A stretch of DNA of 64,000 nt. Source: an uncultured Poribacteria bacterium. Lineage in GTDB: Bacteria; Poribacteria; WGA-4E; WGA-3G. Shown here piece by piece: positions 14,128 through 60,654 of the stretch (the stretch's first letter is position 1; each line of letters begins with the position of its first letter). Location: NCBI GenBank assembly GCA_951813565.1, contig OX638351.1, positions 1,184,001 through 1,248,000 on the forward strand. The letters run 5' to 3'. Position numbers and translations under genes: made by a program. The notes under the pieces were generated by a model. That model worked only from the letters and a program-made list of their open reading frames with translations, had not been told where the DNA came from and did no database searches.

Positions 14128-17100
14128 GTTTCTATTCCACATTGGTGCGATTAAAAGTGGTTCTCTGGCTTCAGCATGACAGACAGAACAAGCCGTTTCT
14201 ATTCCACATTGGTGCGATTAAAAGTTGTGGGTCGCCGTTGGCAATGCTATTGGTGTACCCGTGTTTCTATTCCACATTGGTGCGATTAAAAGGATTGGCC
14301 CCCTGTGACTTGTTCGGCGCCCCTGATCATGTTTCTATTCCACATTGGTGCGATTAAAAGTTTTCTGTTTTATCCCAAGGTGCTGCCAGTTGTTGATCTG
14401 TTTCTATTCCACATTGGTGCGATTAAAAGGCACGTGGGGTTGCTACACCAGAAATCAATTATGTCGTTTCTATTCCACATTGGTGCGATTAAAAGGTTGA
14501 AACTGCTGGCATAGTCAGATTACGTAACAAGAGTTTCTATTCCACATTGGTGCGATTAAAAGAATGCCAATTATGTCCAGTTCGGACTCTGGGTGGCAAT
14601 GTTTCTATTCCACATTGGTGCGATTAAAAGGAGTGCAAGAGGACTAACCAGACAGAACACATATTACTTGTTTCTATTCCACATTGGTGCGATTAAAAGA
14701 AGCCTCCACAGGTTCGGGGGTTATAGGGTTTTCAACGTTTCTATTCCACATTGGTGCGATTAAAAGAAGCCTCCACAGGTTCGGGGGTTATAGGGTTTTC
14801 AACGTTTCTATTCCACATTGGTGCGATTAAAAGTTTGCAGCAACAAGTACCTTATAAGAGTTGAAAGCGACGTTTCTATTCCACATTGGTGCGATTAAAA
14901 GATAAGTGGATGGTTGATCCTACATCTTCGGATCCCGTGTTTCTATTCCACATTGGTGCGATTAAAAGTAAGAAATTCTCCAAACCTACGAGTCAGGAAA
15001 CCCCGTTTCTATTCCACATTGGTGCGATTAAAAGGTTTCAGCACCACTCACATTAAAATAACCAGTAAGGGGTTTCTATTCCACATTGGTGCGATTAAAA
15101 GCGCGTTTGCACAAGAAAGAATTGTTCAGGATACATTAGAGAGTTTCTATTCCACATTGGTGCGATTAAAAGGTAATTAGAAAAACCCGAGCTGATTATT
15201 CCCCGAACAGTTTCTATTCCACATTGGTGCGATTAAAAGGTCTTGATATTGTCAAGCAAGTTGCAAGATATTCTCAGTTTCTATTCCACATTGGTGCGAT
15301 TAAAAGTTTAAAAAACCTGCCTATAGGGTATCGTGAAAATAGTTTCTATTCCACATTGGTGCGATTAAAAGTAGGTGTATTACACACTTTCTACGTTGCT
15401 TGGGGGTTTCTATTCCACATTGGTGCGATTAAAAGTATGTTTAGTTCTTGTTTATAATACTTTTATTTCACACGTTTCTATTCCACATTGGTGCGATTAA
15501 AAGTGGTGAAGATGTAATTATGCCTATCTATACAGATGATGTTTCTATTCCACATTGGTGCGATTAAAAGATTGAACAAGATTTTACAAGGTATACAAAA
15601 GTTGCCAGCGTTTCTATTCCACATTGGTGCGATTAAAAGAAAAAGCCGACAGTCTGTTAACCGTAAACTCAACAACCGTTTCTATTCCACATTGGTGCGA
15701 TTAAAAGTTGGTCTTTACAGGACATAGAAACTGTCTTTGAGTATGTTTCTATTCCACATTGGTGCGATTAAAAGGTTTATGAGAGGGGGAACATGTCCCC
15801 TTCAGACGCAGTTTCTATTCCACATTGGTGCGATTAAAAGAATATGACCCCGAAAAATTCACTTATATTGTTAGTAGTTTCTATTCCACATTGGTGCGAT
15901 TAAAAGGAGTTCCATTCTGGTGCATCACTCCGAATGAATTATAGTTTCTATTCCACATTGGTGCGATTAAAAGACAAACCTCTGCCCTAACATCCTTATA
16001 CGAGATCATCTCGTTTCTATTCCACATTGGTGCGATTAAAAGTCTACGTCTTATCTTGAACAAGTTATCCGTGCTAACTATGTTTCTATTCCACATTGGT
16101 GCGATTAAAAGAACCGATTGTAATTCCGATAGCACATTGTCCAAGCGGTTTCTATTCCACATTGGTGCGATTAAAAGTTATCGCGGCTCTCCCAGTCCGT
16201 ATTGGAGAGACTCTGGCGTTTCTATTCCACATTGGTGCGATTAAAAGTTTAGGCTTGAAAATCCGTGAGCGTGTTTGTAAGAGAGTTTCTATTCCACATT
16301 GGTGCGATTAAAAGGATCGTCTGTGATCCTTGTAGTCAACCTGATATTTGTTTCTATTCCACATTGGTGCGATTAAAAGGTCCAGTTCGGACTCTGGGTG
16401 GCGGTTGGAAATGCCATGTTTCTATTCCACATTGGTGCGATTAAAAGCCGAAAAGGATGACTTTGAATTTGCTAATCAACGAAGAGTTTCTATTCCACAT
16501 TGGTGCGATTAAAAGTTACTAAAGCAAAACTTAGAGTTTATATCTCCCAAGTTTCTATTCCACATTGGTGCGATTAAAAGTATATTCGCATCACAAAAGC
16601 AAAATGGAGCGTTAAGTTTCTATTCCACATTGGTGCGATTAAAAGTGCGGAGGGCCTCAAACTTTTATTTTTGGGTGAATGCTGTTTCTATTCCACATTG
16701 GTGCGATTAAAAGTGAGCGTCCCTGGATTCAACAACAAGGAGATATAAAAAGTTTCTATTCCACATTGGTGCGATTAAAAGGAAAAGTACATGAAGGAGG
16801 TGAAGAGGAAATGGCTGTTTCTATTCCACATTGGTGCGATTAAAAGGTGATGATCTTCGTCGTCATCAGGTAGGGCATGTTGCGTTTCTATTCCACATTG
16901 GTGCGATTAAAAGTGAAAAGAAAGTCCTCGCTGGTGGTTATGACTATACGTTTCTATTCCACATTGGTGCGATTAAAAGTGTTTAATCTTCATTACTCCA
17001 ATGAAGACTATTATATGTTTCTATTCCACATTGGTGCGATTAAAAGTCTGGCCGCTCAGGGCGCTGTTCTGATGCATGTGATGTTTCTATTCCACATTGG

Positions 17101-17310
17101 TGCGATTAAAAGACCAAACATCAACTATGTCCGCTTCGGCTTGTATGGTTTCTATTCCACATTGGTGCGATTAAAAGTGTTTAATCTTCATTACTCCAAT
17201 GAAGACTATTATATGTTTCTATTCCACATTGGTGCGATTAAAAGGGCTTTCCCGGACAGACAGCCAATCGGTCGCCATCAGTTTCTATTCCACATTGGTG
17301 CGATTAAAAG
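14128..17310 (-). CRISPR. CRISPR array, 48 identical 30-bp repeats and 47 spacers (about 35-41 nt)
   Basis: Repeat on + GTTTCTATTCCACATTGGTGCGATTAAAAG; transcribed form CTTTTAATCGCACCAATGTGGAATAGAAAC ends in an ATAGAAAC handle; leader on the cas2 side; counted by hand. Confidence 0.98.
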
Positions 17311-17957: not shown

Positions 17958-18187
17958 CTACGATTTAGTGTGCTTCTACCACCACTGTCGCGAGCTGGAC
18001 AAGAAAATCGGGCTTAGAAAGCCCTCCCACAAGACAAAGTGCTTCTACCACCACTGTCGCGAGCTGGACAAGAAAATCGGGCTTAGAAAGCCCTCCCACA
18101 AGACAAAGTGCTTCTACCACCACTGTCGCGAGCTGGAGCTCGCTCCTACAAGAAGAGAATCTACGATTTAGTGTGTTTCTACCACCA
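17958..18187. repeat. 69-bp tandem repeat (2 full + 1 partial) of REP-like units, bounded by a 27-bp direct repeat overlapping the cas1 3' end
   Basis: Units start at 17970, 18039 and 18108; CTACGATTTAGTGTGYTTCTACCACCA at 17958-17984 and 18161-18187. Confidence 0.85.
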
Positions 18188-19980: not shown

Positions 19981-21117
19981 TTACGGATTTGCATTTACAT
20001 TGTTCCTGTGTCCATACCTACGAAGTATGAGCCTGCCGTTATCCGTTGAACAACTGACGCGGATTCCGCGGGCAACACGAAAAGTATAAACGTTAGCATG
20101 CCCTTGTAAAGCTTTAAATCGTAATCCTCCTCCTGTGAGTGCTGTTGTATCTCCGTTGTTAGCCTTAAGTTTATAGGCAACATGAGCTAATGTTTCCTGA
20201 AGTTTAATGCGTTCTTCAACATTGTTTTGATTGCTGAAGTCATCTTTGAAACTTGGCAAGTATTCCAATCGTGGGAATGGTAGAAGTTCTCCTGTCAAAA
20301 TATCTGCTTTTGTCCGATTCCAAATCAGGTTTCCCCACGCGGACAACCATGCAACAGTTTTTCCGTTATTTGCTAGAGATTCAAGCAGTGTTTCTGGAAT
20401 ACCTTCAAGTTCTTCAATAGGATAATCTGCGTCAGCCGCCATCATTGCAAATTTTGTCCGATGCTGTTGGATTACGGATGTATCAATCTTAATTGGGAGA
20501 CGTGGAATTCTAATCAGATCAGAAGATCGTTCAAAGATATATACAGTTTCATCGGCATAGAATGTGCCGAAAGTCTGCATGTAACCTTGCAGGCTTTTGA
20601 AGCCACCAACAAGATTAAATATGACACGATAACCCGCATCAGGCCGCCACGGGACGTTATCCTCCAACCACTTAATGAGCTCCTTTATACCATCGGTGAA
20701 AGAATCTGTATCTTTCGTCGATAAACCTTTAGGTGTTACAATAGATACGCTACACCCTTTATCTTGCAGAAACTCAGAAATCAGTTTACCTGTTGTTTCT
20801 CCTTGTGCGGTGTCGGTGCAGATAAGATAGTGTTGATCTTTACTGTTTTCAGGTAACCGACCTTCGTAGATACCATAAACACCATTTAATTCTGCACTTG
20901 CCATTCGGTTTGTATTTACATCATTTTCCTGGAGTTTTTTATGTGCGCGTTCAGCGAGTTTTGTAATAACATCTTGAGCCTTAGCTTCTAATTCATCATT
21001 TTTAAGATTTGCTGATTCCACAAGTATTTTTGCCCAATCTCTTGCTTCGTCCGGATCTTTTCTATTGATGGAATTTGTGAGGATACTTGTTCCAACGGTT
21101 GATACGATAAAACGCAT
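19981..21117 (-). CDS. cami1: CARF (APE2256/SSO1393-type) + C-terminal RelE-like toxin; Cami1-like type III effector
   Basis: STVGTS N-terminus, SAELNG, TDTAQG and FNLVGGFK (CARF); C-terminus LEYLPSFKDD...YTFRVARGIRVSC...LILRRYGHRNNV (RelE-like). Confidence 0.75.
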   Translation of the reverse strand: MRFIVSTVGTSILTNSINRKDPDEARDWAKILVESANLKNDELEAKAQDVITKLAERAHKKLQENDVNTNRMASAELNGVYGIYEGRLPENSKDQHYLICTDTAQGETTGKLISEFLQDKGCSVSIVTPKGLSTKDTDSFTDGIKELIKWLEDNVPWRPDAGYRVIFNLVGGFKSLQGYMQTFGTFYADETVYIFERSSDLIRIPRLPIKIDTSVIQQHRTKFAMMAADADYPIEELEGIPETLLESLANNGKTVAWLSAWGNLIWNRTKADILTGELLPFPRLEYLPSFKDDFSNQNNVEERIKLQETLAHVAYKLKANNGDTTALTGGGLRFKALQGHANVYTFRVARGIRVSCSTDNGRLILRRYGHRNNVNANP

Positions 21118-21144: not shown

Positions 21145-22317
21145 TCAAGAGGCGTCAATTGGTGATATTTTGACCCAACCGAGTGGTGTGACAGGGTTAT
21201 CTCTACGGTATAAAATGCGGCGGGTTTTTGGGAATTCACGAGTATCATAGGGTTGTCGTTGATTAGAACGACTCCTACCTAACCGATACCGTTCTCGTAA
21301 CTCCATCACGTCTATAGGTGCATCTTCTCCTTGCGTAAACGATGCGGTAACAGTGTTAGAAAGGTATCCTGCGCCCCACCCGATTTGCAGCATAAACGCA
21401 TCGTCAGCCAGTCTATTGTTTAAACCCATCAGTTGTTCATATAGGTTAGCGATTTCTGGATTATTGTAGTCATCATAGAACTTTCGTTCCACTTCCATAA
21501 GTATTTGCGTCTCCTCGTTACAAACTTCAGCAATTTCTTGGAGTATATTTTTTTGTGTCTTATCAAAATTGAGTTGTTTTTTCTCCCTTTCTCTAAAAAG
21601 CAGGTCATCAATCTTGATGGAAAAACTCAAAGACTTCACACCCTGAATTACCTCTACAAAGTTTTTATATTCTGTGTTGTCCTCAACCTTCTGTTCAAGT
21701 TGATTGTTTTGATTGAGTGTAACCGTCCATGCAGTCTCGATTGCAAGTGCGTCCCACTCAAGCGGTTCAGTATCGCTTACTTGTAATGCGCGAAGCAGAT
21801 CATGGGTAGGGTCTTTCCCAAACGCCAGTTTTTCTATCTGTTGGGCAGGATTTTCTTGTCTACGTCTCGGTGGCGTGCCTTTTTCAATTTCTCTGTTCAG
21901 ATGTTCCGAACTGTCGTTATAGAGTTTTTCATTTTCAGCATTGTTTATTAGATCCGATAACAACGCAGTGCGGAGTGCACCTTTGATACTGCTACCGGGA
22001 ATATAGGGACGGTTGCCTACGGATTTGATAGCTTCTCGTATGTCAGTTGTTTCTGGGCTTTGGGCGCAAAGGATATTATAAGTGGAAAGGTCCGCTGCAT
22101 CCATGTTGTGCCGTGAGAAGTAATCGCTCCAACGGAAATCGCGCTGCGACATTTCGGAGGTCAATGCGTTTATATCAGTGCTTGGATGCGCTAATACTTT
22201 GTCCAGGTCAATATGATACCACCTGCTGTTAGCATAATAGCCATCAATATGATTCAACGTTTCGCCTGTGCCGATGTGGACTGGGGTGAGTGTTTCAAGT
22301 TTGTATTTTTGTTTCAT
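21145..22317 (-). CDS. csm5: Type III-A RAMP Csm5
   Basis: TLTPVHIGTG, PYIPGSSIKGALRTA, LQIGWGAG and PLGWVK motifs. Confidence 0.93.
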   Translation of the reverse strand: MKQKYKLETLTPVHIGTGETLNHIDGYYANSRWYHIDLDKVLAHPSTDINALTSEMSQRDFRWSDYFSRHNMDAADLSTYNILCAQSPETTDIREAIKSVGNRPYIPGSSIKGALRTALLSDLINNAENEKLYNDSSEHLNREIEKGTPPRRRQENPAQQIEKLAFGKDPTHDLLRALQVSDTEPLEWDALAIETAWTVTLNQNNQLEQKVEDNTEYKNFVEVIQGVKSLSFSIKIDDLLFREREKKQLNFDKTQKNILQEIAEVCNEETQILMEVERKFYDDYNNPEIANLYEQLMGLNNRLADDAFMLQIGWGAGYLSNTVTASFTQGEDAPIDVMELRERYRLGRSRSNQRQPYDTREFPKTRRILYRRDNPVTPLGWVKISPIDAS

Positions 22318-22337
22318 TATTGAGGTTTTCTCCTACA

Positions 22338-23393
22338 TTATCGGGAATCGGAGTTCCCTCCTACTTTGATGCCGACCTGCCACGCGTAGCCATAGCGATA
22401 GACGTGATGCGGGTATTCCTTCGGTGTTAAATCTACCAACCTGCCAACGAGTTTGTCAGATGAATTTAAAACTGAACCTTCTGCGAACATATTGACCTTT
22501 TTCCTCTTTTTGTGTGTGCCAGTTGCCCCCACCCATCCTGTTAATGGGTTTAGGTTGTAGGCGATATCACCTTTGAGGAGATGCTCAAGTTGCTCCGATG
22601 ATTTGGGGCATATCGGTGAAAGTGTGACAAATTGCGTGCTGTGTTCCGCTGTCGATATTTCAAGATCATGCGCTGGGCAAAACTCAAACTGCCCGTAACC
22701 TGCGTTGCGTTCACCACCGATTCCGTTGTCGCCAAGCACTCGGAGTAGCGTTTCTACTTTCTGTTTTGTTGCATCAGAGTCAAATTTCGCTGCGAACCAG
22801 AGTCCGCAGTTTGTATTGAATTGGACGGTTTGGACGTGCCATATTTCGGAGCCTGAATTTTGCGCACCGATGGTAACGCGCGGGCGTGTGGTAGTCTCCC
22901 AAATGATTGGCGTATTATCCATCACCTTATTTAGTTGATCTTTTTCATCAGCACTTATCCAAACATTTTCACCGTTGATCAGATTGTCTCTGTCAAAATC
23001 AGGCGATTGATCGGAGATAATGTTTTGAAAAATAGATTTGGAAATGAACCGGACCTTTTTGATTTTTTTCTTAGATTTGTCTGGGACATTTTCATTTCCA
23101 CGAAAAGTCAAAGGTTTCGGAAAGAGGTAGATGTTATCTGCATACGGAAACGCAGAGGTTAACATAAAAGGTAACGTCTCGCTATCTTCTTTGTATCGTT
23201 CAAGAGACTTTTTGAGACTGTCGGTGTCGTAAAAGGTTGACCACGTTTGGCAGATTGCAGAAAAGAGCGTATCTGCTGGGATGTAGGTCTCGGTTTTCTC
23301 TAAGCCGAGGCTGCCTGTTTGTGCTGCACCTGTGGCGCGCCCGAGGTGTAGTTGTGTTTTGAACCTTAAGCGATAGACGGTATAATCTTCCAT
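22338..23393 (-). CDS. csm4: Type III-A RAMP Csm4
   Basis: IPADTLFSA, LTSAFPY, GIGGERNAGYGQF, MFAEGS and HHVYRYG motifs. Confidence 0.93.
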   Translation of the reverse strand: MEDYTVYRLRFKTQLHLGRATGAAQTGSLGLEKTETYIPADTLFSAICQTWSTFYDTDSLKKSLERYKEDSETLPFMLTSAFPYADNIYLFPKPLTFRGNENVPDKSKKKIKKVRFISKSIFQNIISDQSPDFDRDNLINGENVWISADEKDQLNKVMDNTPIIWETTTRPRVTIGAQNSGSEIWHVQTVQFNTNCGLWFAAKFDSDATKQKVETLLRVLGDNGIGGERNAGYGQFEFCPAHDLEISTAEHSTQFVTLSPICPKSSEQLEHLLKGDIAYNLNPLTGWVGATGTHKKRKKVNMFAEGSVLNSSDKLVGRLVDLTPKEYPHHVYRYGYAWQVGIKVGGNSDSR

Positions 23394-23401
23394 AATCGCA
23401 C

Positions 23402-24232
23402 CTATTTCCCGTTAATTGCTTTCAAAATTGTAGTTTTATAGTCCAATTTGCGTAGGGTTGCAATATCGGTGTTTTCATCTCCGATAGGGGTAAGGGTAAC
23501 GTTTGGGTCTTCATAACATTCACGCGATTTGAAGGTCATGGTTAGGTTCTCAAATGCTATTTGCCCAGAACCGCGGGAACCGGAGCCGCCGAGGTAGTCA
23601 TCTTGAAGCAGTTCCATACCTTTTAGGACGGTGTCGAAAAGTTTGAGTTCGTCTTGAAGTTGATTGTCATGATCGCTGCCGTGCAGTGTATAGAGACTGT
23701 GGGCTACTTGAAATGGTCCGAATATTGCGCCTGCAGGGACCCGTTCCTGTTGACGTGGTGTAGCGGCAGAGGTAATTCGGTCAATTGCTACTTCTGTCTT
23801 AATTTCGGTGAAGTCGGTATCGGTGTCGACTCTGTCCAGTACCGCCAGTGATTCGTCGGTTAAAAAGGTGTCTCGGACGATCACACGTGTCGGCATTGTT
23901 TTCCCTCTTAATTGTTGTATTGGTGCAACACCGAAAACTTGACAAACTGGGCATATATTATATTCTGCTGGTGTTTTGCACTCGTGAACTTGGACATCTC
24001 TACCGACAGACTTATTCAAATCCTTCTCGAAGTGCCGGTCAAGTAAACCTCGCATCTTTCCACGTAAGGACGAACCGGGGATGTAGGGTTGTCGGTTGAA
24101 GGCGTTTCGTATGATTGGATTATCAATACCACCGATGTCTAATTCACCTGTGTTGCCACCGATGTGTAATCCTGTTAAGGCGTTGATTGCACCTTTTAGA
24201 AAAATTTTTCCGTGTAGTTGAATGCTTGGCAT
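23402..24232 (-). CDS. csm3: Type III-A backbone RNase Csm3 (Cas7)
   Basis: TGLHIGG, IGGIDNP (catalytic Asp position intact), PYIPGSSLRGKMR, KTEVAIDR and YLGGSGSRGSG; ATG 24232 with AAGGAGG RBS. Confidence 0.95.
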   Translation of the reverse strand: MPSIQLHGKIFLKGAINALTGLHIGGNTGELDIGGIDNPIIRNAFNRQPYIPGSSLRGKMRGLLDRHFEKDLNKSVGRDVQVHECKTPAEYNICPVCQVFGVAPIQQLRGKTMPTRVIVRDTFLTDESLAVLDRVDTDTDFTEIKTEVAIDRITSAATPRQQERVPAGAIFGPFQVAHSLYTLHGSDHDNQLQDELKLFDTVLKGMELLQDDYLGGSGSRGSGQIAFENLTMTFKSRECYEDPNVTLTPIGDENTDIATLRKLDYKTTILKAINGK

Positions 24233-24242
24233 GTGTTCCTCC

Positions 24243-27132
<2,890 letters not shown>

Positions 27133-27200: not shown

Positions 27201-27300
27201 TGCTCTATTCCAAATTGGTTCGATTAAAAATGTACAAGAAATACAAGTTCCTTTAAGAGGAACAACAAAAGTTTTTATTCCAAATTGGTTCGATTATAAA
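27201..27300 (-). CRISPR. Degenerate two-repeat mini-array with one 40-nt spacer (crRNA-like regulatory RNA)
   Basis: 27271-27300 matches the main repeat 25/30 and 27201-27230 matches 24/30; spacer 27231-27270; guide 5'-UUUUGUUGUUCCUCUUAAAGGAACUUGUAUUUCUUGUACA. Confidence 0.85.
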
Positions 27301-27360
27301 GTGTACATCCAACATTATACATTTTGTACACTATTAAGTTTGGAATGTCAAGTTAAAAGT
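27301..27360 (-). promoter_or_regulatory. Leader-like promoter region of the mini-array (possibly also of cas10)
   Basis: TGTCAAGTTAAAA (27346-27358, minus-strand TTGACA) identical to main leader 17357-17369 and at nearly the same distance from the repeat; AACATTATA also shared. Confidence 0.65.
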
Positions 27361-27386: not shown

Positions 27387-27408
27387 GGCGAGGCAAAGGT
27401 GCCTCGCC
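27387..27408 (-). terminator. GC-rich hairpin (terminator or REP-like) after the 59-aa ORF
   Basis: GGCGAGGCA-AAGG-TGCCTCGCC perfect 9-bp stem, 11 nt past the stop codon. Confidence 0.55.
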
Positions 27409-27419
27409 AATTCAGTGGG

Positions 27420-27599
27420 TTAATTGTTTGGAAAACTTTTGATGTTTTTCTTACAGTTCTTTGTAATTCTTTTTATCTCATTTTTCTCATTGTACTTGCT
27501 GGTGTCTTTCGACTCATCTCGAAAAAACGAGAAGAAAAATCCGAAATGGATTTTTACCTTCCTGTTCGGTTGTAAGCGAAATTCTGAATAGAATTTCAT
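27420..27599 (-). CDS. Unannotated 59-aa basic small protein; candidate CRISPR-repressed toxin or regulator
   Basis: MKFYSEFRLQPNRKVKIHFGFFFSFFRDESKDTSKYNEKNEIKRITKNCKKNIKSFPNN; strong SD AAGAAAGGAGG; absent from the ORF track, whose shortest entries are 60 aa. Confidence 0.55.
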   Translation of the reverse strand: MKFYSEFRLQPNRKVKIHFGFFFSFFRDESKDTSKYNEKNEIKRITKNCKKNIKSFPNN

Positions 27600-27721
27600 G
27601 ATATCTGCCTCCTTTCTTCATAAAATTTAACATTTATCTCCTTTCTTGTTTGACATGAGTCCACAGTAGAATACTTTCCTTAAACTTGTGAAACATCTTG
27701 TCGTGATTTATTCTAATGATA

Positions 27722-27738
27722 TGCAAAATCTATGCCAA
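27722..27738 (-). promoter_or_regulatory. Sigma54 (-24/-12) promoter upstream of the small ORF(s)
   Basis: Minus strand TTGGCATAGATTTTGCA fits YTGGCACGRNNNTTGCW with exact spacing. Confidence 0.6.
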
Positions 27739-27855
27739 TAATTTCGGTAGAAATTATATGGTTATCTCCTTTTTGCTGTGCCAAATTGACATTTTTATCG
27801 CAACTTCATAAAACAACAAGGTCAATTCGGCACATTTGGAGCGTTTAACGTTATA

Positions 27856-30189
27856 CTATAAAACGTTCGGATTATATTCGTCTAATATCAGACCAAGTGT
27901 ATTATCGTAGCGAACGTTGATGAAATACTGATTTATACGTTCATTTTCGTTGATTTGCCCATCCTTATATAGTTTTGCAAATTGGCTGTAACTAATTTGT
28001 GCGATGTATGCCCTCGCTTCATAATACTTGCGAGCATCTGTGTCGGATAAAAATTCTTGTTCGTAGCACGTTGGCACAACCTCAACGCTTTTAAAGAGTT
28101 CGTTAAACTCTTTACGTCCTTTAGCATCTTCAATGAACGGGACGATGTCTTGTAGGTGCCGTTCAAACAGTTGTTTTGCTCTATTAAACTTATCATTTTC
28201 TTTTTCATCATACCCTTCACAATAAACATTTTCTATAAGGACTTGGATTTTTGACTCCTTGAGTGTGTCATTAACTACAGATGCGAAAGCGTTTATAGTG
28301 CGTTCAACTTTCTCTGTGGAATAGATGTATTTATCGCTTTTCCCACCCTCTTTGCATATATGGACATCACAGATTCCTTTCTTGCCTTTTCTGTTGATAC
28401 GACCAAAACGTTGGATGAGTGCATCTATCGGTGCAGGTTCAGTAAAGAGACAATCAAAATCAATGTCAAGTGATACCTCAACGGCTTGTGTGCCGACAAG
28501 GAGATCGGCGTTTTCAAGTTCTCCTTCTATCCTTTCCCGATCTTTAAGGATAAATCGGCTGTGAAGGAGTTTGGCATTATCGGCTCCATGCTGCAATTCC
28601 TGAAACACATCTTGTGCCTGCTTGACAGTATTACAGACAACCATAACGCTATCTCCTTGGTTCAGTTTATCCTTTATTTTCGGAATAGCATCGGGGATAT
28701 TTCCATCAAGCAGCTTGACACGGTGCCGTGTGAATTTGTCCCTATCTTCTGGTGCCATGTCAACTGGTATGAATTCCCCGATTGCCTTGATAATCATATC
28801 TGTAAGAAACTGGGGCATTGTAGCAGTCATAATGCAGAACTTTGCATTGTAATCTTCACGGAGTTTCTTTATCATTGTCAAAATAAGCGCGGTTGTGTGC
28901 GGATCATAAGCATGGATTTCGTCAAAGATGAAAAGTCCATGAGACATCTCTGCCATCTGCATTTCAAAACCGCGTATACCGAAAAATGCTTTGAGGAGTT
29001 GAAAGGGCGTTAGCACCTTGTAAGGACGACAAATTTTTTTCGTTAGATCTCTTTCGTCTTGAGCACGTTTTTGCCTAACTAATTTTTCGGCAGATTCATG
29101 ATCACGCCCCTGATCAATGAAAGCTTGATATATGGCTTGATATTTGGCAGCATTTTGAGGTGTATAGTCTTTATCAACGAGTGCTTGATACATGAAGTAG
29201 GTAGCCTTTCCATGCAACACACCTATTTTTTCGTCTGATACGAGTTTTTTCAATCTCTTATACATTGCGTTGATGCTTGCAGTATAGGGTAACACATAAA
29301 AGACACGGTTACCTTTTGTTTTGCATTGGTTTTTGTCTGACCAAAGCAGCGCAGCTTCCGTTTTACCTGAACCTGTCGGTGCTGATAGCATGAGCTGACC
29401 GTCGGTTTTCCCAGCATCCTCTTGAAAGGACTCCCATCCGTGAAATTGTCGTCCTCTTTGCTCAATGCTTTGTACAAGGGACGCTTCAAGTTTATCAAGG
29501 GCGGTTTGGATTTCGTTTTTGGCATTGACATTAGAAGCAAGATGATCGCAGGCAATCATGCATCCGCGCATCAGCATGCCGTAGGTGCAGTGTAAGGAGT
29601 TTAATTCACCGTCTTCAAAGTCGTTCAAATATGGGGCAAGAAATTCTCGGTAACCACTAATGAGTAGATCGGTTGAGGTAACGGGTGTCCATAAGCACGT
29701 TGTTGTAGGAAACCAACTATGAAACCAATGAGGGATCTGCTCCTGTATTTCCATCAAAGCATCCCAATTCGGTTCCAGTTCTGCAACATGCTTTTGCCAC
29801 TCTTGATAACCTTCTTCGTTTTCTGGAATGCATGGATACTTTTCCCACAGCGTCTCACTATCCTTATGGTGTGTTAAAATGGCAAGTGCAATTGCCTGTT
29901 TTGCCTCATCTGATATTTGAAGTGTTACCACAAATCCAGTGGAAAGGATTTCATGACGATAGTTCCACCGATCATCTCTATCGGTAAGTTGCTTTTGGAA
30001 ACCGGTTGCTGCTTTGCCGAAATCGTGAAGTGCGACAGCGTAAAAAAGATGTTCAAAGAAATTAGGTTCTCCTGCAACATCAGCTAAAAAAGGCATCCGT
30101 TCTCGTAGACTATTGTATACTTCAAGACAATTCTGTGTATGATCATGAAGTGATTCTTGTGGATCGCTTTTTGCTAATAGTGTGGACAT
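27856..30189 (-). CDS. cas3: Cas3 HD nuclease-helicase
   Basis: ALHDFGK, APTGSGKT, DEIH, MTAT, TQAVEVSLDID and QRFGRINR motifs. Confidence 0.96.
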   Translation of the reverse strand: MSTLLAKSDPQESLHDHTQNCLEVYNSLRERMPFLADVAGEPNFFEHLFYAVALHDFGKAATGFQKQLTDRDDRWNYRHEILSTGFVVTLQISDEAKQAIALAILTHHKDSETLWEKYPCIPENEEGYQEWQKHVAELEPNWDALMEIQEQIPHWFHSWFPTTTCLWTPVTSTDLLISGYREFLAPYLNDFEDGELNSLHCTYGMLMRGCMIACDHLASNVNAKNEIQTALDKLEASLVQSIEQRGRQFHGWESFQEDAGKTDGQLMLSAPTGSGKTEAALLWSDKNQCKTKGNRVFYVLPYTASINAMYKRLKKLVSDEKIGVLHGKATYFMYQALVDKDYTPQNAAKYQAIYQAFIDQGRDHESAEKLVRQKRAQDERDLTKKICRPYKVLTPFQLLKAFFGIRGFEMQMAEMSHGLFIFDEIHAYDPHTTALILTMIKKLREDYNAKFCIMTATMPQFLTDMIIKAIGEFIPVDMAPEDRDKFTRHRVKLLDGNIPDAIPKIKDKLNQGDSVMVVCNTVKQAQDVFQELQHGADNAKLLHSRFILKDRERIEGELENADLLVGTQAVEVSLDIDFDCLFTEPAPIDALIQRFGRINRKGKKGICDVHICKEGGKSDKYIYSTEKVERTINAFASVVNDTLKESKIQVLIENVYCEGYDEKENDKFNRAKQLFERHLQDIVPFIEDAKGRKEFNELFKSVEVVPTCYEQEFLSDTDARKYYEARAYIAQISYSQFAKLYKDGQINENERINQYFINVRYDNTLGLILDEYNPNVL

Positions 30190-30192
30190 GTC

Positions 30193-30828
30193 TTATTCTC
30201 CATGAATGCGTTGGTGCAAATAGACACCCCATTCCTTATCGGTATCGTGTAATACATCACCCTCATATTTTATTTCCTCTGTGATAAGACAATATGCACG
30301 TGTACCACACTGCCGACGCGGAATATCTGCTGTGAAATGCGTTGGTAATGCCTGCACCTGTCCGTGAAGTTGTTGGTCAGGAAACGGGAGTATTGTATCG
30401 CAATAAGTCGTTTCCGTTTTACGTTCTAATTCAACTTCCTCTATAGATTTCACCGTTGCTAAATCTGAGGAACGCCCCAACAGCAAGGGGTAATGTGGTC
30501 GTTCTAATGCATCCTTTAACCACATATCCGGGGTATAAAGATAGAGTTCTGGTTGCACAAGGAATTCGCGTCTGTTGACGTTTGATTTTGCATCTAACTT
30601 GCCTCCAAATTCATAGACGGTTTCTAAATCAACTGCTCTGCCTTTACTCTTAAAAACAAACCCTATTGCTGCATCATGCGGTGTAACCCAGTCACCTTTT
30701 GCAGCAGTCAAAAGCCCATAAAGTGCCGAAAGTGGTGGTAAGGGTAGTGTCGGCTGGAATCCGCTAATAAATAACGGATTCCGAAATGATGAAACCCATC
30801 CCGTAATGTGAACGCGTAGAACCTTCAT
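30193..30828 (-). CDS. cas5: Type I-B Cas5
   Basis: SSFRNP...TLPLPPLSALYGLL, LLLGRSSDLA. Confidence 0.92.
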   Translation of the reverse strand: MKVLRVHITGWVSSFRNPLFISGFQPTLPLPPLSALYGLLTAAKGDWVTPHDAAIGFVFKSKGRAVDLETVYEFGGKLDAKSNVNRREFLVQPELYLYTPDMWLKDALERPHYPLLLGRSSDLATVKSIEEVELERKTETTYCDTILPFPDQQLHGQVQALPTHFTADIPRRQCGTRAYCLITEEIKYEGDVLHDTDKEWGVYLHQRIHGE

Positions 30829-31856
30829 GGAATGTCTCCGATATGTGTTTCTAATTTTTGTGATAACATGGATATTACCTTATTTGGCGAATCGTAAACG
30901 ATTTCACATGGTAGGTTTGTGTTGTTTGCCAAACTCATTAGATCCTCATCTATTCCATCCATGAACCCGCTCCGTCTACCGATATAAATCGCATCACAAA
31001 ATCGGTCTGCGTAGTCGTCAATAACTTGGTTTAGTGCGTCTAAAGATAACTCTCCGACTTCATTTCGTTCTACCATTAAATTCATGAATGGGTGGTTTCC
31101 ACCGTCAAGGACTGTGAGAATAATCAGTTTAGGTGTAACATCGGTGAGGTGTGATGTCAATTTTGCCCCACCACTGAGTATAGGAAGTGCTTCAAGAGTT
31201 TGTTGACAACGTCTCACCCGAATCTCTTTTGGAAGCACCCACGGTGCCTTTTCGTCTTCCTGAGTGCCACCCGCATTTTGGATAGTCTCAACATAACTTG
31301 ATGAGATATTCTTATAGCCAGTCCTGTTAACATCAGAAAACGCACCCACTGCACTGAGATCTAATGAGAAAATACCTTGTAGGACACACGAATAAAATTG
31401 GTGTTCATACGGCACTGGATCACCTTCTTGCCGTGCCATCACACCGAAATCGTTTGTTGGAATTTGTGGTTCGATAGCAATAAGCGGTGAACACTTCAGT
31501 GGAGACAAGCGGGTTACCGTCAAGTTTACTCTTTTCTTACCTTGCATTTCGCTTTGAGCACGCATATAACCAAAGACATCGTCATCGTCATAAGTTACAG
31601 GGTCTGCAGCGGTAAATGCAATTTTTTTCTCTCTTTCTATAGGCGAATTTTTCCATTCATCAAATTCGTGTTTAAGGGTGGTGCGCCACCAGTTTCGCCA
31701 TGCTTGTCCGGAAACATAAGGATAGGTACTCCGTCCTTTTCTTAACGTTTTGACCTTTACTATGTTTTCTGTTCTTTCAGATGTGTCCTCACCTGCGTTG
31801 TTAAGTGCGGAATATGGTGCATCAATTAGGGTGAGTCCGATAAGGTGTTTAGACAT
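30825..31856 (-). CDS. cas7: Type I-B Cas7 (Cst2/DevR)
   Basis: SALNNAG, YPYVSGQAWR, DDDVFGYM and TRLSPL motifs. Confidence 0.92.
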   Translation of the reverse strand: MSKHLIGLTLIDAPYSALNNAGEDTSERTENIVKVKTLRKGRSTYPYVSGQAWRNWWRTTLKHEFDEWKNSPIEREKKIAFTAADPVTYDDDDVFGYMRAQSEMQGKKRVNLTVTRLSPLKCSPLIAIEPQIPTNDFGVMARQEGDPVPYEHQFYSCVLQGIFSLDLSAVGAFSDVNRTGYKNISSSYVETIQNAGGTQEDEKAPWVLPKEIRVRRCQQTLEALPILSGGAKLTSHLTDVTPKLIILTVLDGGNHPFMNLMVERNEVGELSLDALNQVIDDYADRFCDAIYIGRRSGFMDGIDEDLMSLANNTNLPCEIVYDSPNKVISMLSQKLETHIGDIP

Positions 31857-31858
31857 GA

Positions 31859-33250
31859 TTAGTCCTCCTCATTTGCTTCGGTTTCAGATGCATCGTCTGC
31901 ATCAGGTATATTATCTTCATCAAAATCAACAAAACCTTTATCCTGTAGCCAGTTGTGGAGTCGTTCATAAACCCGAAAAAGCAGTAAGTCGCGCGTCTCT
32001 CGCCACGGTGTTGCGCTAAAATCCTCGCTCTCTGGAAAGAGATATTCCACATAATCATCCAATGAAAAAAGCGGGTTTTGTGTGCCTTGTTTAATTCGTT
32101 CTCGGATAATGTATAGCAGGACAGTTCGGCATGCCTCATAACTTTTGGCACCTTCTAAGCGAGTAAGTCGTTTATTACTTCCAGATTCTTGGATACAATC
32201 TGCGATGAGATCCCCGACATGTTTTATTTTCTCAAGTCGTGTTTGTTCCATAGCTCTAACCTCCTTAAAGTAGAGAGATAACAATTCCCAATTCCCGCGC
32301 GGTTTTCTGTGTCGTCTATTTAAAAAGGATCCAAGAATTGAGATGTCTTGCAATAGATTTTCATATACTCGGTTTGGTCTGTTTTTGTAATCTTCCTCAG
32401 ATTTAACTTTATCCCAATTGACATAGTAACCACTTCGGACAATTTCCTGCCATACTTTATTAAACTTGCCCATATAAACAATACGTAAAAATTTAAATAC
32501 AGGTGCGGGCATGTAGAATATCTCAAGTTCAGGTTTGTCGTTGTAATTTCTGAAACAGTAAACCTGCATCGGTATATTCTCATCAGAGCGCATTTCCTGA
32601 TATTGTGTCATTTCCCGCGCCATATAGAACAGTCCATTGCGTGGATTGGCATAACCAGGGTTAAAACACCCCGTTATATCCTGTTGAAGGTGTTGCTTGC
32701 GAATATCCTCGATACATACCCTCGCCCAACTTTTCAGTGCCTTCCACGAATTCGAGTGGAGTGTAAGAAACTGGCCTCCAGTCGCCATGAATACTAATGG
32801 GGATAATTGAATAGCAAAAGCACAAGCCGAACAATAACCTGCTCCCTCAGTGAAGGCAGGAAAAAAATTGCGTAATAGGCCAGAGCCTGTTAAAGGTATG
32901 TCTTTTTTCAAAAGAAAATTGTTGGCATCACGTCTGCCGCATCCCATACAATCTCCAGTTTCGTTCAATTCGCACATCGTGTCTAAATAGTGTGTGCATT
33001 CTTCCTTGAGTAGTGCAACTCTATCACGCTTATTGTGAGAAGGATTAGTCAATACACTATTTGGAAAAATGCTGTGTAAATTTCCCCATCCAATCTTTGT
33101 TTGCATCATTGGCGCGACATCATTAACAACTTGCTTAAGGTCCGCTTTAGTAATCTGATCGGGTTGTACGGTGCGCCCCAACCATTCACAGATACCACAA
33201 ACACCTGCATCAACAAATGGATTTCCCATTAACTTTTCATAAATTGGCAT
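31859..33250 (-). CDS. cas8: Type I-B large subunit Cas8 (Cst1/Cas8a1-like, CxxC-CxxC)
   Basis: GNPFVDAG, IFPNS, CMGC and CSAC motifs; located between cas6 and cas7. Confidence 0.85.
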   Translation of the reverse strand: MPIYEKLMGNPFVDAGVCGICEWLGRTVQPDQITKADLKQVVNDVAPMMQTKIGWGNLHSIFPNSVLTNPSHNKRDRVALLKEECTHYLDTMCELNETGDCMGCGRRDANNFLLKKDIPLTGSGLLRNFFPAFTEGAGYCSACAFAIQLSPLVFMATGGQFLTLHSNSWKALKSWARVCIEDIRKQHLQQDITGCFNPGYANPRNGLFYMAREMTQYQEMRSDENIPMQVYCFRNYNDKPELEIFYMPAPVFKFLRIVYMGKFNKVWQEIVRSGYYVNWDKVKSEEDYKNRPNRVYENLLQDISILGSFLNRRHRKPRGNWELLSLYFKEVRAMEQTRLEKIKHVGDLIADCIQESGSNKRLTRLEGAKSYEACRTVLLYIIRERIKQGTQNPLFSLDDYVEYLFPESEDFSATPWRETRDLLLFRVYERLHNWLQDKGFVDFDEDNIPDADDASETEANEED

Positions 33251-33329: not shown

Positions 33330-34082
33330 CTAAACCTCTACCATCCCGAACCCTGCACTATTCTTATCGCCAAACCCGCATTCATAGCCTGTCTGTATCA
33401 ATGCGGGGCTGCCGGACACACGAAACGGACACAAAATCCCGCGTATCTTGATACCCTTGAAATCAACAAGCCGAGTGACGCGCCTCTGCTTCCTACGGAT
33501 ATAGCGTTCATCAAAACATAAGGACAATGTATCGTCTTGCGGGGTGCGTGCATGTATCGCCTCATGTTTGCGGATAAGGTTTTGACGGATGAGATCGGAG
33601 AGTTCAGGATCGTCTGGTAGGCAGTAGTGCATGCGGCGTTTACCATCGTTTTCACGCACAGCGGACATCACAATCGGAGAGAGGCATCGGAACTCCATCT
33701 CAGAGCGAAAACGCGGGAGACGCGGGATCGTCACATCCTTGATTTTGAGTTGGTGCGATCCGATGGATAATCTGCCTTCGGTTAGGAGTGTATCGGCAAA
33801 ATGGGATAAGAATTGTTCCATTGGGGAAGATACGAACCACGTCAAAGTAGACCGAAAATGTATCTGTTCGCCTAAGATACGTCTGCGTTCTGCCATCAGT
33901 TGAGAGAAGGTGAAAAGCTTGAACCGTTTTTCAGCGGCGTGATAACCTTCATCATGCAGAAAGCCAGCGTATTCAGGATTAGATTCTGCAAGGAATCGGT
34001 AAATCACTCCGACAAGGAGGTGGTTGTAGTTAATGGGTAGGGTAATGCCGTTGCCAACATCGGTAAGGATTTGTATTCGCAT
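33330..34082 (-). CDS. cas6: crRNA-processing endoribonuclease Cas6
   Basis: LPINYNH, FLHDEG, FKLFTFS and C-terminal G-loop GFGDKNSAGFGMV. Confidence 0.95.
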   Translation of the reverse strand: MRIQILTDVGNGITLPINYNHLLVGVIYRFLAESNPEYAGFLHDEGYHAAEKRFKLFTFSQLMAERRRILGEQIHFRSTLTWFVSSPMEQFLSHFADTLLTEGRLSIGSHQLKIKDVTIPRLPRFRSEMEFRCLSPIVMSAVRENDGKRRMHYCLPDDPELSDLIRQNLIRKHEAIHARTPQDDTLSLCFDERYIRRKQRRVTRLVDFKGIKIRGILCPFRVSGSPALIQTGYECGFGDKNSAGFGMVEV

Positions 34083-39309: not shown

Positions 39310-39450
39310 TGTGAATATAAGAGGCGCAATGAATTGCGCGACGACAAACATATCAAGTCTATAGAGTGATAAAAGTAATTGTGAATATAAGAGGCGCAAT
39401 GAATTGCGCGACGACAAACATATCAAGCCTATAGAGAGTGAAAAAGTAAT
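39310..39450. repeat. 70-bp tandem duplication containing the GAGGCGCAATGAATTGCGCGAC REP
   Basis: Units start at 39310 and 39380. Confidence 0.8.
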
Positions 39451-39506
39451 TTAGATTTTCTATAACCCATTAACTTGTAGACACTAAGCCTTTGAATTTA
39501 AGACTT

Positions 39507-60199: not shown

Positions 60200-60654
60200 T
60201 TTGTTGTATCCCTCAAATTTATGGGACTCTAATCCAAGTAGCCTTACAGAACATAAACAAATTCAATACTGTTTATGAAGTATACACAATTTTCTACAAG
60301 AATGTCAAGAAGAAAACGTAGAAGTAATAGTTGAGTGTGATACTTAAAACAATCCAATGTTTTGAAAATTAGATGAAGTGTTCAAATTATAGACAATAAT
60401 GTTCATTTTGTAACTATATTTTTCACTGTTGCAGCAATGACTCGCTATGGTTTACGCTGCAGCAGTTGACTACAATTGGCATCGTATTTGCTATTATCTA
60501 TTGTAAGATGATTGATAACCTAATCGCTGTCCTCTCTATTTGCAAACAAAATACCTTGAAAATTACATTGAAAAATGCTAAAATTGAAACGATACTTCAT
60601 ATTACCGTAAAAGTTTTTAGCCAAATTCTATATAAGGAAAAAGAGGATATACAA

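Follow-up and report, generated by a model that had tools for sequence, protein, structure and literature searches.

A conserved small-protein gene and a crRNA-like guide beside a type III-A CRISPR operon of a Poribacteria bacterium: a candidate CRISPR-repressed toxin-antitoxin cassette

Introduction

Several modules have been described in which a CRISPR effector complex is directed by an RNA resembling a CRISPR RNA (crRNA) toward a gene of its own cell. CreTA is known from type I-B systems of Haloarcula hispanica and from type I-F systems of Acinetobacter and Pseudomonas; its toxin, CreT, is a small RNA in which a strong Shine-Dalgarno (SD) sequence and a mini open reading frame (ORF) with rare codons sequester tRNA. 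In the type I-F system of Acinetobacter baylyi ADP1, the toxin of the CrePA module is CreP, a 103-amino-acid (aa) protein with a KilA-C domain, whose promoter is targeted. In both modules, Cascade or Csy complexes bind promoter DNA through approximately 10 base pairs proximal to the protospacer adjacent motif (PAM), while the CreR RNAs, which are crRNA-like and come with no toxin, regulate cas promoters in types I-B, I-E, and V-A. As far as the literature searched goes, the described guards CreTA, CreR, and CrePA all work by repressing promoters with DNA-binding effectors of type I or V-A. The present analysis concerns a 64-kb stretch (hereafter the window) of the 5.43-Mb genome of an uncultured Poribacteria bacterium (contig OX638351.1; genome labelled G000), in which a small gene and a mini-array of two degenerate CRISPR repeats stand directly before the cas10 gene of a type III-A operon.

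Modules of this kind in other CRISPR types are posed as a question in a 2025 review. In the survey by Shmakov et al. (2023; 10.1101/2023.03.03.530964), type III mini-arrays are reported to have no conserved positions, enriched Cas10 clades or targets, and were judged to be degraded. No description of a type III Cre-like module was found in the literature searched, which included one 2026 preprint and outside which most subscription journals lie.

Results

The mini-array holds a putative guide complementary to the end of a conserved small gene

The substance of the region is a conserved small-protein gene and a crRNA-like guide beside a type III-A operon. Together they form a cassette that fills a gap of 723 nt between a type I-B cas3 on one side and the type III-A cas10 on the other, all genes being on the minus strand (Table 1). 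In 5' to 3' order, the cassette comprises an upstream inverted repeat, a sigma-54-type promoter, an SD, the small ORF of 59 codons, a terminator hairpin, and the mini-array, which is made of a first degenerate repeat (psiR1), a spacer (psiS), and a second degenerate repeat (psiR2). Apart from the 48-repeat array, the window contains no repeat-like sequences other than the two psi-repeats, which are 70 nt apart; the mini-array stands 69 nt before the TTG start of cas10.

The strongest inverted repeat of the region joins the mini-array (27236-27275) to the 3' end of the small ORF (27432-27471) over 40 nt, with 78% complementarity and 156 nt between the arms. The mini-array and the ORF share one strand, and psiS has the reverse-complementary sequence of the mRNA, so that RNA from the mini-array can pair with the transcript. 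The match starts 5 nt inside psiR1, that is, within the would-be 8-nt tag of the crRNA. When the corresponding 40-mer (5 tag nucleotides plus psiS positions 1-35) was scanned against both strands of the host genome, the small-ORF site was the best non-self match, with 31 of 40 positions as against 26 of 40 for the next best; with every sixth spacer position masked, the values were 31/35 and 24/35, respectively.

Pairing is maintained by covariation and interrupted at every sixth position

The cassette was compared in eight loci, namely that of the window (G000) and those labelled G001, G003, G013, G023, L056, L058, and L063. The two repeat cores of the mini-array are invariant, and in the eight loci the pairing between psiS and the small ORF is maintained through compensatory changes; an intact small ORF was accompanied by the mini-array in all of the seven genomes that have one. 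Covariation was tested in a four-genome alignment of the 41-pair helix between the target and the tag plus psiS. In this alignment, 82.4% of the cells were paired, compared with 41-49% when the partner was slid by 1-3 columns, and nine pairs (12 cells) were altered on both sides. The covariation score was 0.228 versus 0.130 in shuffles, and was reached by none of the 500 shuffles.

Numbering of psiS from the first base after the tag revealed a regular arrangement of the mismatches. Positions 12 and 24 were mismatched in all eight loci, and positions 6, 18, and 30 in six of the eight each, so that mismatches occupied 34 of the 40 cells at sixth positions versus 35 of the 240 cells at the 30 other positions; each of the other five phases had 4-12 mismatches per 48 cells. 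Permutation of the positions gave p = 1.1e-5, and p values from 9.5e-5 to 5.7e-4 were obtained with reduced sets of loci. In class 1 effector complexes, every sixth base of the guide is flipped out and left unpaired. The six-base rhythm is thus what is predicted for a guide held on a Cas7/Csm3 backbone, while a free RNA duplex does not predict it. The feature is not specific to type III, as type I Cascade has it as well. As a signature that needs only sequence, it could be used for finding further guide:target pairs.

The same rhythm bears on a Cas-independent explanation, according to which the mini-array transcript, or a read-through product of the toxin mRNA folding back on psiS, would form a plain duplex, either stopping translation or serving as a substrate of RNase III, as in a type I toxin-antitoxin pair. 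The long inverted repeat on one strand would suit such a pair, and a strong SD followed by a small basic or aromatic protein is a well-known trait of type I toxins. A plain duplex, however, gives no reason for mismatches at every sixth base, for two invariant repeat cores, or for a pairing that reaches exactly into the tag, and we hold this explanation to be very improbable.

Tag pairing and gene association point to a type III-A partner

The complementarity does not stop at the spacer but extends by 4-8 nt into the handle derived from the repeat (tag:anti-tag). Seven of the eight loci have paired bases at tag positions -2 to -5, and in G003 all 8 tag bases are paired; in the four-genome alignment, positions -1 and -5 covary with the target. 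In the window's genome, the tag AUAGAAAC of the true repeat has become AUAAAAAC in psiR1 (-5 G>A), and in G003 and G023 the tag AUUGAAAC has become AUUGAAAU (-1 C>U), each substitution creating a match to the target. In type III systems, tag:anti-tag pairing marks self, so that Cas10 stays off while RNA cutting continues, whereas it has no role in type I recognition. Given that a CARF-RelE effector is encoded behind the csm operon, accidental activation of Cas10 would be costly. Furthermore, when the Csm3 of the window is aligned with solved Csm3 chains, the Asp of its GGIDNP motif, which we take to be the catalytic residue, is seen to be retained. The cassette lies directly before cas10 in six of the eight loci, and in G023 it lies between cas6 and cas10, with no I-B genes there.

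These observations were weighed against a classical CreTA/CrePA arrangement, in which the type I-B Cascade encoded upstream would use the guide, bind DNA inside the small gene, and block transcription. The cassette does come right after the I-B cas3 in the window and in L056, Cascade too leaves every sixth base unpaired, and pairing of the guide would be with the non-template strand, an orientation known to obstruct elongation. On the other hand, I-B Cas7 and Cas8b1 were not found in the cassette-bearing genomes G001 (97% complete) and G023 (92% complete, one contig), both of which have cas10 and csm3. At the PAM position stand three bases (AAC, AAT, or AAA) that match, fully or nearly, the end of the repeat itself, a sequence that type I must not accept, and a complementarity of about 35 nt, rather than a seed of about 10 nt, would invite Cas3 cleavage if the PAM were valid. 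As covariation inside the tag would also be without a role in type I recognition, the use of the guide by Cascade appears quite improbable, and the sequence comparisons argue that its partner is most likely type III-A.

The 59-aa frame belongs to a small protein family

A profile of the small proteins found matches in five of 40 genomes of the genus, the next match having an E-value of 0.0014 and containing stop codons. In the phylum, six of 176 genomes, belonging to two of 31 genera, had matches at E<=0.001, the short form of G023 falling below this cut-off. Among 1.84 billion representatives, 11 matches were obtained at E<=0.001, of which 10 were small proteins of 56-100 aa that share the pattern M.F.F.F..HFGFFFSFFR..S..F.AKNE..R.T...KKN.K.FPKN; the eleventh, a protein of 2349 aa with 35 short matched stretches, was taken as compositional noise. 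The homologues at the cassette loci are 59, 56, 60, 58, 58, and 59 aa long, with a 34-aa form in G023, whose middle has been lost in frame, and a broken form of 27 aa in L063. The pN/pS of the 59-aa frame was 0.35-0.66 in eight pairs, which indicates purifying selection. These comparisons lead us to regard the 59-aa ORF as a genuine gene, one of a small family with a patchy distribution. The predicted protein, aromatic-then-basic in composition, is a candidate toxin. The ESM Atlas gave no usable match for it. Pfam, searched with the three small ORFs of the window, PADLOC, and PHROGs yielded no family for the small proteins; a weak holin match for P0011 (E 0.019) was disregarded.

The start of this gene had drawn attention in the original prediction, which described two strong SD sites in tandem, each preceding one of two overlapping, out-of-frame ORFs of 59 and 39 aa. 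Both observations were borne out, including the translations of the two ORFs: AAGAAAGGAG occurs exactly twice in the window, both times on the minus strand, where the surrounding sequence reads ...AACAAGAAAGGAGATAAATGTTAAATTTTATGAAGAAAGGAGGCAGATATCATGAAATTC... In shuffled windows its mean count was 0.17, and two copies were reached in one of 100 shuffles. The two ORFs differ in conservation. In all eight loci, a GGAGG stands within 20 nt before the start codon of the 59-aa homologue, while the upstream SD (SD1) has no counterpart in the four other cassette genomes of the genus, each of which has one GGAGG and one ORF. Likewise, the comparison that had been proposed to tell which frame is conserved favoured the 59-aa frame: the 39-aa frame was found in one of the 112 genomes of the family searched, namely the window's own, and in none of the four other cassette genomes of the genus. 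SD1 and the 39-aa ORF are confined to the window's genome and one near-identical contig (L061). The 39-aa ORF has no match in Pfam, PADLOC, or PHROGs. The two SD copies, 29 nt apart, look like a local duplication, and SD1 with the 39-aa ORF is probably a recent addition in this lineage that would be at most a modulator of translation. The tandem SDs and overlapping ORFs are therefore real, yet the least conserved part of the region.

It had further been suggested that the locus encodes a CreT-like RNA toxin acting through a strong SD and a mini-ORF, with either peptide or the RNA itself being toxic. The two strong SD sites and the adjacent CreA-like mini-array are in keeping with this idea. 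The tandem SD and the 39-aa ORF, however, are present in the window's genome only, the conserved frame is one of 56-60 aa under purifying selection, and the cassette has no conserved short ORF carrying rare codons in tandem, so that an RNA toxin of this kind is hardly to be expected here. That either peptide might be the toxin is unlikely for the same reason, since SD1 and the 39-aa ORF are lineage-specific and only the 59-aa frame is conserved. The suggested interpretation is thus partly supported. Its pointer to CreT and CreA was right: a CreA-like mini-array is indeed adjacent and its spacer is complementary to the small ORF, but the target, the type of candidate toxin, and most likely the partner differ from those of CreT.

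A terminator hairpin and a predicted promoter separate the small gene from the mini-array

Upstream of the small gene, the half-sites GCCAAATTGAC and GTCAATTTGGC of the inverted repeat were found as a pair also in G001, G009, G013, L056, L058, and L063, and the motif GYCAAWTTGRC has a single match in the window. The repeat is a candidate site for an enhancer-binding protein, at which an activator may act. The half-sites and the psi-repeats at 27201-27301 (CCAATTTGG) have the core CAATTTGG in common, which may reflect chance, common descent, or recognition.

A motif of the sigma-54 type, for which the consensus is TGGCAC-N5-TTGCW, stands 47-124 nt before the ATG in all five genomes measured and is present in L056, L058, and L063 too, hence in 8/8 loci. 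The host genome has rpoN and eight strong Sigma54_activat matches, besides a ninth that is weak; none of these nine falls in the window. A sigma-70 reading of the same promoter (TTGGCA-17-TAGAAT) fits the window's genome only, and because the other loci do not keep its -10 box, sigma-54 was preferred. The motifs thus suggest a promoter used by sigma-54 together with an activator that would occupy the inverted repeat. The possibility that cyclic oligoadenylate (cOA) drives this promoter through a CARF-fused activator was dropped, there being no RtcR-type CARF activator in the genome. The other TGGCAYN5TTGCW match of the window, at 60477-60492 (+), lies within the first bases of an ORF that starts with TTG at 60466.

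The hairpin that follows the small ORF in the window was also found in the other loci read. Behind it, the sigma-70-like promoter of the mini-array, AACTTGACAT, is conserved in G000, G001, G003, G013, and L056; it was missed by the promoter scan, which demands T at position 6 of the -10 box. Within psiS itself there is a small hairpin, GTTCC-N7-GGAAC (27247-27263, minus strand), with a U-rich stretch behind it, which the scan flagged as terminator-like; its stem is kept in most loci, and it may be a by-product of the pairing with the conserved KKN codons.

The arrangement of these signals bears on the alternative of a regulatory, CreR-like cassette, in which the small protein would be a harmless regulator or accessory protein and the guide would allow Csm to exert feedback on a transcript, driven by sigma-54, that supplies the csm operon as well. 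In G009, the upstream inverted repeat and the sigma-54-type motif stand directly in front of a lone psiR and cas10, so that the promoter may be the csm operon's own; the small protein matches no toxin family, and an orphan cassette is tolerated in G013. However, the hairpin terminator and the separate TTGACA promoter part the ORF from the mini-array and cas10, and a cut upstream of the terminator would not reduce cas10 mRNA. In addition, known CreR RNAs are reported to hit cas promoters, whereas the target here is the coding end of a small ORF. We regard the CreR-like alternative as unlikely, though deserving of attention.

Cassettes in related genomes

When the complete intergenic region was compared at the DNA level with 61 related genomes, the mini-array and its promoter were matched, although most of the hits were true CRISPR arrays; no match was obtained over the ORF part, the ORF being too diverged in its DNA. 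Reading of the loci revealed the same cassette in G003, G013, and G023. In G001, an IS-like insert with a target duplication of about 9 nt separates the terminator from the mini-array promoter (L024, oriented 1680-2380). A DNA pattern built from psiR1, psiS, and psiR2 found nine loci in two public collections: three new cassettes (L056, L058, and L063), one near-identical to the window (L061), three already in the set, and two that are not cassettes, L055 being a chance match within coding sequence and L062 a true CRISPR array. The related loci come from metagenome-assembled genomes (MAGs) of Candidatus Poribacteria. In L058 (oriented 1380-1420), a promoter AACTTGACA...TATAAT follows psiR2 and does not precede psiR1. 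The orphan cassette of G013 (contig C95; L052, 7400-8020) has no cas genes nearby and is flanked by an island with an SNF2 helicase and a PglX-like methyltransferase, and by a RelE/ParE toxin gene.

Some loci are reduced, as G009 and G027 have a single psiR left before cas10 and the small ORF of L063 is broken. This would fit a decaying relic, that is, an old self-targeting spacer in a degenerating array without present function, and type III mini-arrays were judged likely non-functional in the survey by Shmakov et al. (10.1101/2023.03.03.530964). Against such decay, eight loci from two genera keep the order of the parts (with the TTGACA promoter behind psiR2 in L058), the pairing, and the compensatory changes, which leaves little probability for a relic.

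Genomic surroundings of the cassette

The positions of the cassette parts and of the neighbouring genes are given in Table 1. Beyond the CARF-RelE effector follow cas4, cas1, and cas2, and then the true CRISPR array. The type III ancillary protein at 19981-21117 is of the CARF-RelE kind and not a Csm6 HEPN nuclease. The Csm2 of the window (24243-24893, minus strand) is fused to an N-terminal cold-shock domain (Pfam CSD and Csm2_III-A), a fusion found also in G001 (L054:4875-5453) but not in G003 and G023, where Csm2 has 164-165 aa. Between cas1 and cas2 there is a 69-nt tandem repeat (17970-18137) of 2.4 identical copies, the units of which end in ...GACAGTGGTGGTAGAAGCAC and are unlike the CRISPR repeat; another tandem repeat, of two 70-nt copies with 94% matches, lies at 39310-39451. 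Rfam gave no matches at gathering thresholds in the whole window.

Table 1. Positions of the cassette parts and neighbouring CRISPR-Cas features in the window.
Feature	Position	Strand	Remarks
cas6	33330-34082	-	Type I-B set; presumed processor of array and mini-array
cas8b1	31859-33250	-	Type I-B set
cas7	30825-31856	-	Type I-B set
cas5	30193-30828	-	Type I-B set
cas3	27856-30189	-	Type I-B set; last gene before the gap
Upstream inverted repeat	27777-27834	.	Arms 27777-27796 and 27815-27834; 20 nt, 85% complementary; half-sites GCCAAATTGAC / GTCAATTTGGC
Sigma-54-type promoter	27722-27737	-	TGGCAT-N5-TTGCA (GG-N10-GC); 2 matches in window vs 0.16 expected
SD1 (first AAGAAAGGAG)	27638-27647	-	4 nt before ATG at 27633; lineage-specific
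39-aa ORF	27514-27633	-	Behind SD1; out of frame with 59-aa ORF; not conserved
SD2 (second AAGAAAGGAG)	27609-27618	-	Core GGAGG; 8 nt before ATG at 27599
59-aa ORF, candidate toxin gene	27420-27599	-	Behind SD2; conserved small-protein gene
Guide-pairing site in mRNA	27432-27471	-	Anti-tag 27432-27436 and protospacer 27437-27471 (last 14 codons of 59-aa ORF)
Terminator hairpin	27387-27408	-	GGCGAGGCA-CCUU-UGCCUCGCC and U-rich stretch; in both minimum free energy (MFE) and centroid folds
Mini-array promoter, sigma-70-like	27323-27351	-	TTGACA 27346-27351, 17 nt, TACAAA 27323-27328; read from sequence
psiR1, degenerate CRISPR repeat	27271-27301	-	5 substitutions vs true repeat; last 8 nt AUAAAAAC = would-be crRNA 5' tag
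psiS, mini-array spacer	27231-27270	-	40 nt; complementary to 3' end of small ORF
psiR2, degenerate CRISPR repeat	27201-27230	-	6 substitutions vs true repeat
Type III-A effector operon (cas10/csm1, CSD-csm2, csm3, csm4, csm5)	21145-27132	-	Csm1-Csm5 equivalogs; proposed user of the guide
cas10/csm1	24850-27132	-	TTG start; HD and GGDD motifs seen in translation
csm3	23402-24325	-	Aligned with solved Csm3 chains
CARF-RelE type cOA-responsive effector	19981-21117	-	PADLOC CARF7--CARF_RelE, 3e-130
True CRISPR array	14128-17310	-	48 identical repeats CTTTTAATCGCACCAATGTGGAATAGAAAC (transcribed sense)

Discussion

Taken together, the results lead us to lean, with reserve, toward a CRISPR-repressed toxin-antitoxin cassette, in which Csm loaded with a crRNA-like RNA would silence a toxin mRNA while anti-tag pairing avoids the activation of Cas10. 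The sigma-54-type promoter and the upstream inverted repeat would drive a short mRNA with a strong SD for the candidate toxin of about 59 aa, ending in the hairpin terminator, and Cas6 would cut the mini-array transcript into a crRNA-like RNA with an 8-nt tag. Csm carrying this RNA would pair with the last 14 or so codons of the toxin mRNA, and Csm3 would cut the mRNA near its 3' end, removing the stop codon and the terminator hairpin and leaving a non-stop fragment from which no protein is made. Meanwhile, pairing of the mRNA with tag positions -2 to -5 would keep Cas10 inactive and so leave the CARF-RelE effector idle. Loss or blockage of Csm, Cas6, or the guide, for instance by an anti-CRISPR, would let the mRNA escape and the protein be made. 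The layout of the cassette with its conservation, the covarying pairing, the six-base rhythm, and the association with cas10 are observed, while the steps from Cas6 processing to cleavage, the silence of Cas10, the toxicity, and the use of sigma-54 are inferred. More tentatively, and with some doubt, the cassette may be the first RNA-targeting (type III) CRISPR-repressed toxin-antitoxin, with a tuned tag/anti-tag and sigma-54 wiring, serving as a guard that would respond to loss or blockage of the effector by killing or arresting the cell.

Several points weigh against a Csm-repressed toxin. The covariation in the four-genome alignment is supportive rather than decisive, as the sequences are few and related; the eight loci are kin as well, so that counts across them are not independent, and concerted evolution of two inverted copies could imitate some of the covariation. 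Each sixth position lies opposite the second base of every other codon, and as four of these codons specify variable residues, variation in the protein may contribute to the rhythm; there is no enrichment, however, in phase 3 (6/48), which comprises the remaining second codon positions, and at positions 12 and 24 the mismatch arises on the side of the guide. In G013 the ORF and the mini-array are intact, yet neither a csm3/cas10 orthologue nor a I-B effector was found, which should be lethal were the protein a strong Csm-dependent toxin; this MAG is only 81% complete and contains a distant Cas10-like gene, and 2 nt are deleted from its psiS. As for the protein, the 59-aa product of the window has no Pfam family (E<=0.01), eight members of the family have no PADLOC and no significant PHROGs match, and the 59-aa sequence contains no hydrophobic stretch of transmembrane length. 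Its AlphaFold2 model (13-row alignment) is a single long helix of low confidence (mean pLDDT 56.8, pTM 0.20). Finally, the toxin promoter looks sigma-54-dependent and would need an activator, unlike the constitutive promoters of the known CreT and CreP genes.

If the proposed mechanism is true, RNA-targeting CRISPR complexes have also been co-opted to control the cell's own transcripts, and the tag:anti-tag rule becomes a design feature that separates silencing from immune signalling. The small protein would then represent a new toxin family, and the cassette a natural template for Csm-based knock-down without collateral activation.

Known Csm complexes offer one term of comparison. In Staphylococcus epidermidis and Streptococcus thermophilus, tag:anti-tag pairing serves self/non-self discrimination by Csm and shields antisense transcripts of the array from autoimmunity. 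As there, where Cas10 is kept off while RNA cutting proceeds, tag positions -2 to -5 pair here with the flank of the target; unlike there, the tag pairing appears to have been selected at a dedicated cellular target. In type I toxin-antitoxin pairs such as hok/sok, a base-pairing RNA neutralises the toxin mRNA, and an upstream overlapping ORF (mok) can gate its translation. The 39-aa ORF of the window could gate translation in the same way, but the antitoxin here is crRNA-like and the pairing pattern implies a backbone of the Cas7 family.

With the type III mini-arrays of Shmakov et al., the locus has in common a repeat-like pair near a type III locus, but it differs from them in its conserved position, its target, and its covariation. 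With CreR it shares a degenerate mini-CRISPR that would reprogram the effector for regulation, whereas the target is a separate small ORF and not a cas promoter. As in CrePA, for which an anti-anti-CRISPR role has been proposed, a gene for a putative protein toxin and a creA-like mini-array lie between cas genes, although the small protein has no KilA-C or other family match and the target is the end of an mRNA.

The closest resemblance is to CreTA: the cassette lies within a cas locus, has a mini-array of two degenerate repeats whose spacer matches the neighbouring candidate toxin gene, carries a strong SD, and would reuse the effector for self-regulation. In contrast to CreA, which targets promoter DNA next to a PAM, the guide matches about 35 nt of the 3' coding end together with the tag, with no PAM evident; in contrast to the RNA toxin CreT, the toxin candidate is a conserved protein of 59 aa; and in contrast to transcriptional repression by Cascade, the effector is likely a type III-A complex acting on RNA. 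The cassette would therefore work like CreTA and CrePA, but it departs from what defines them in its target, its type of toxin, and its effector.

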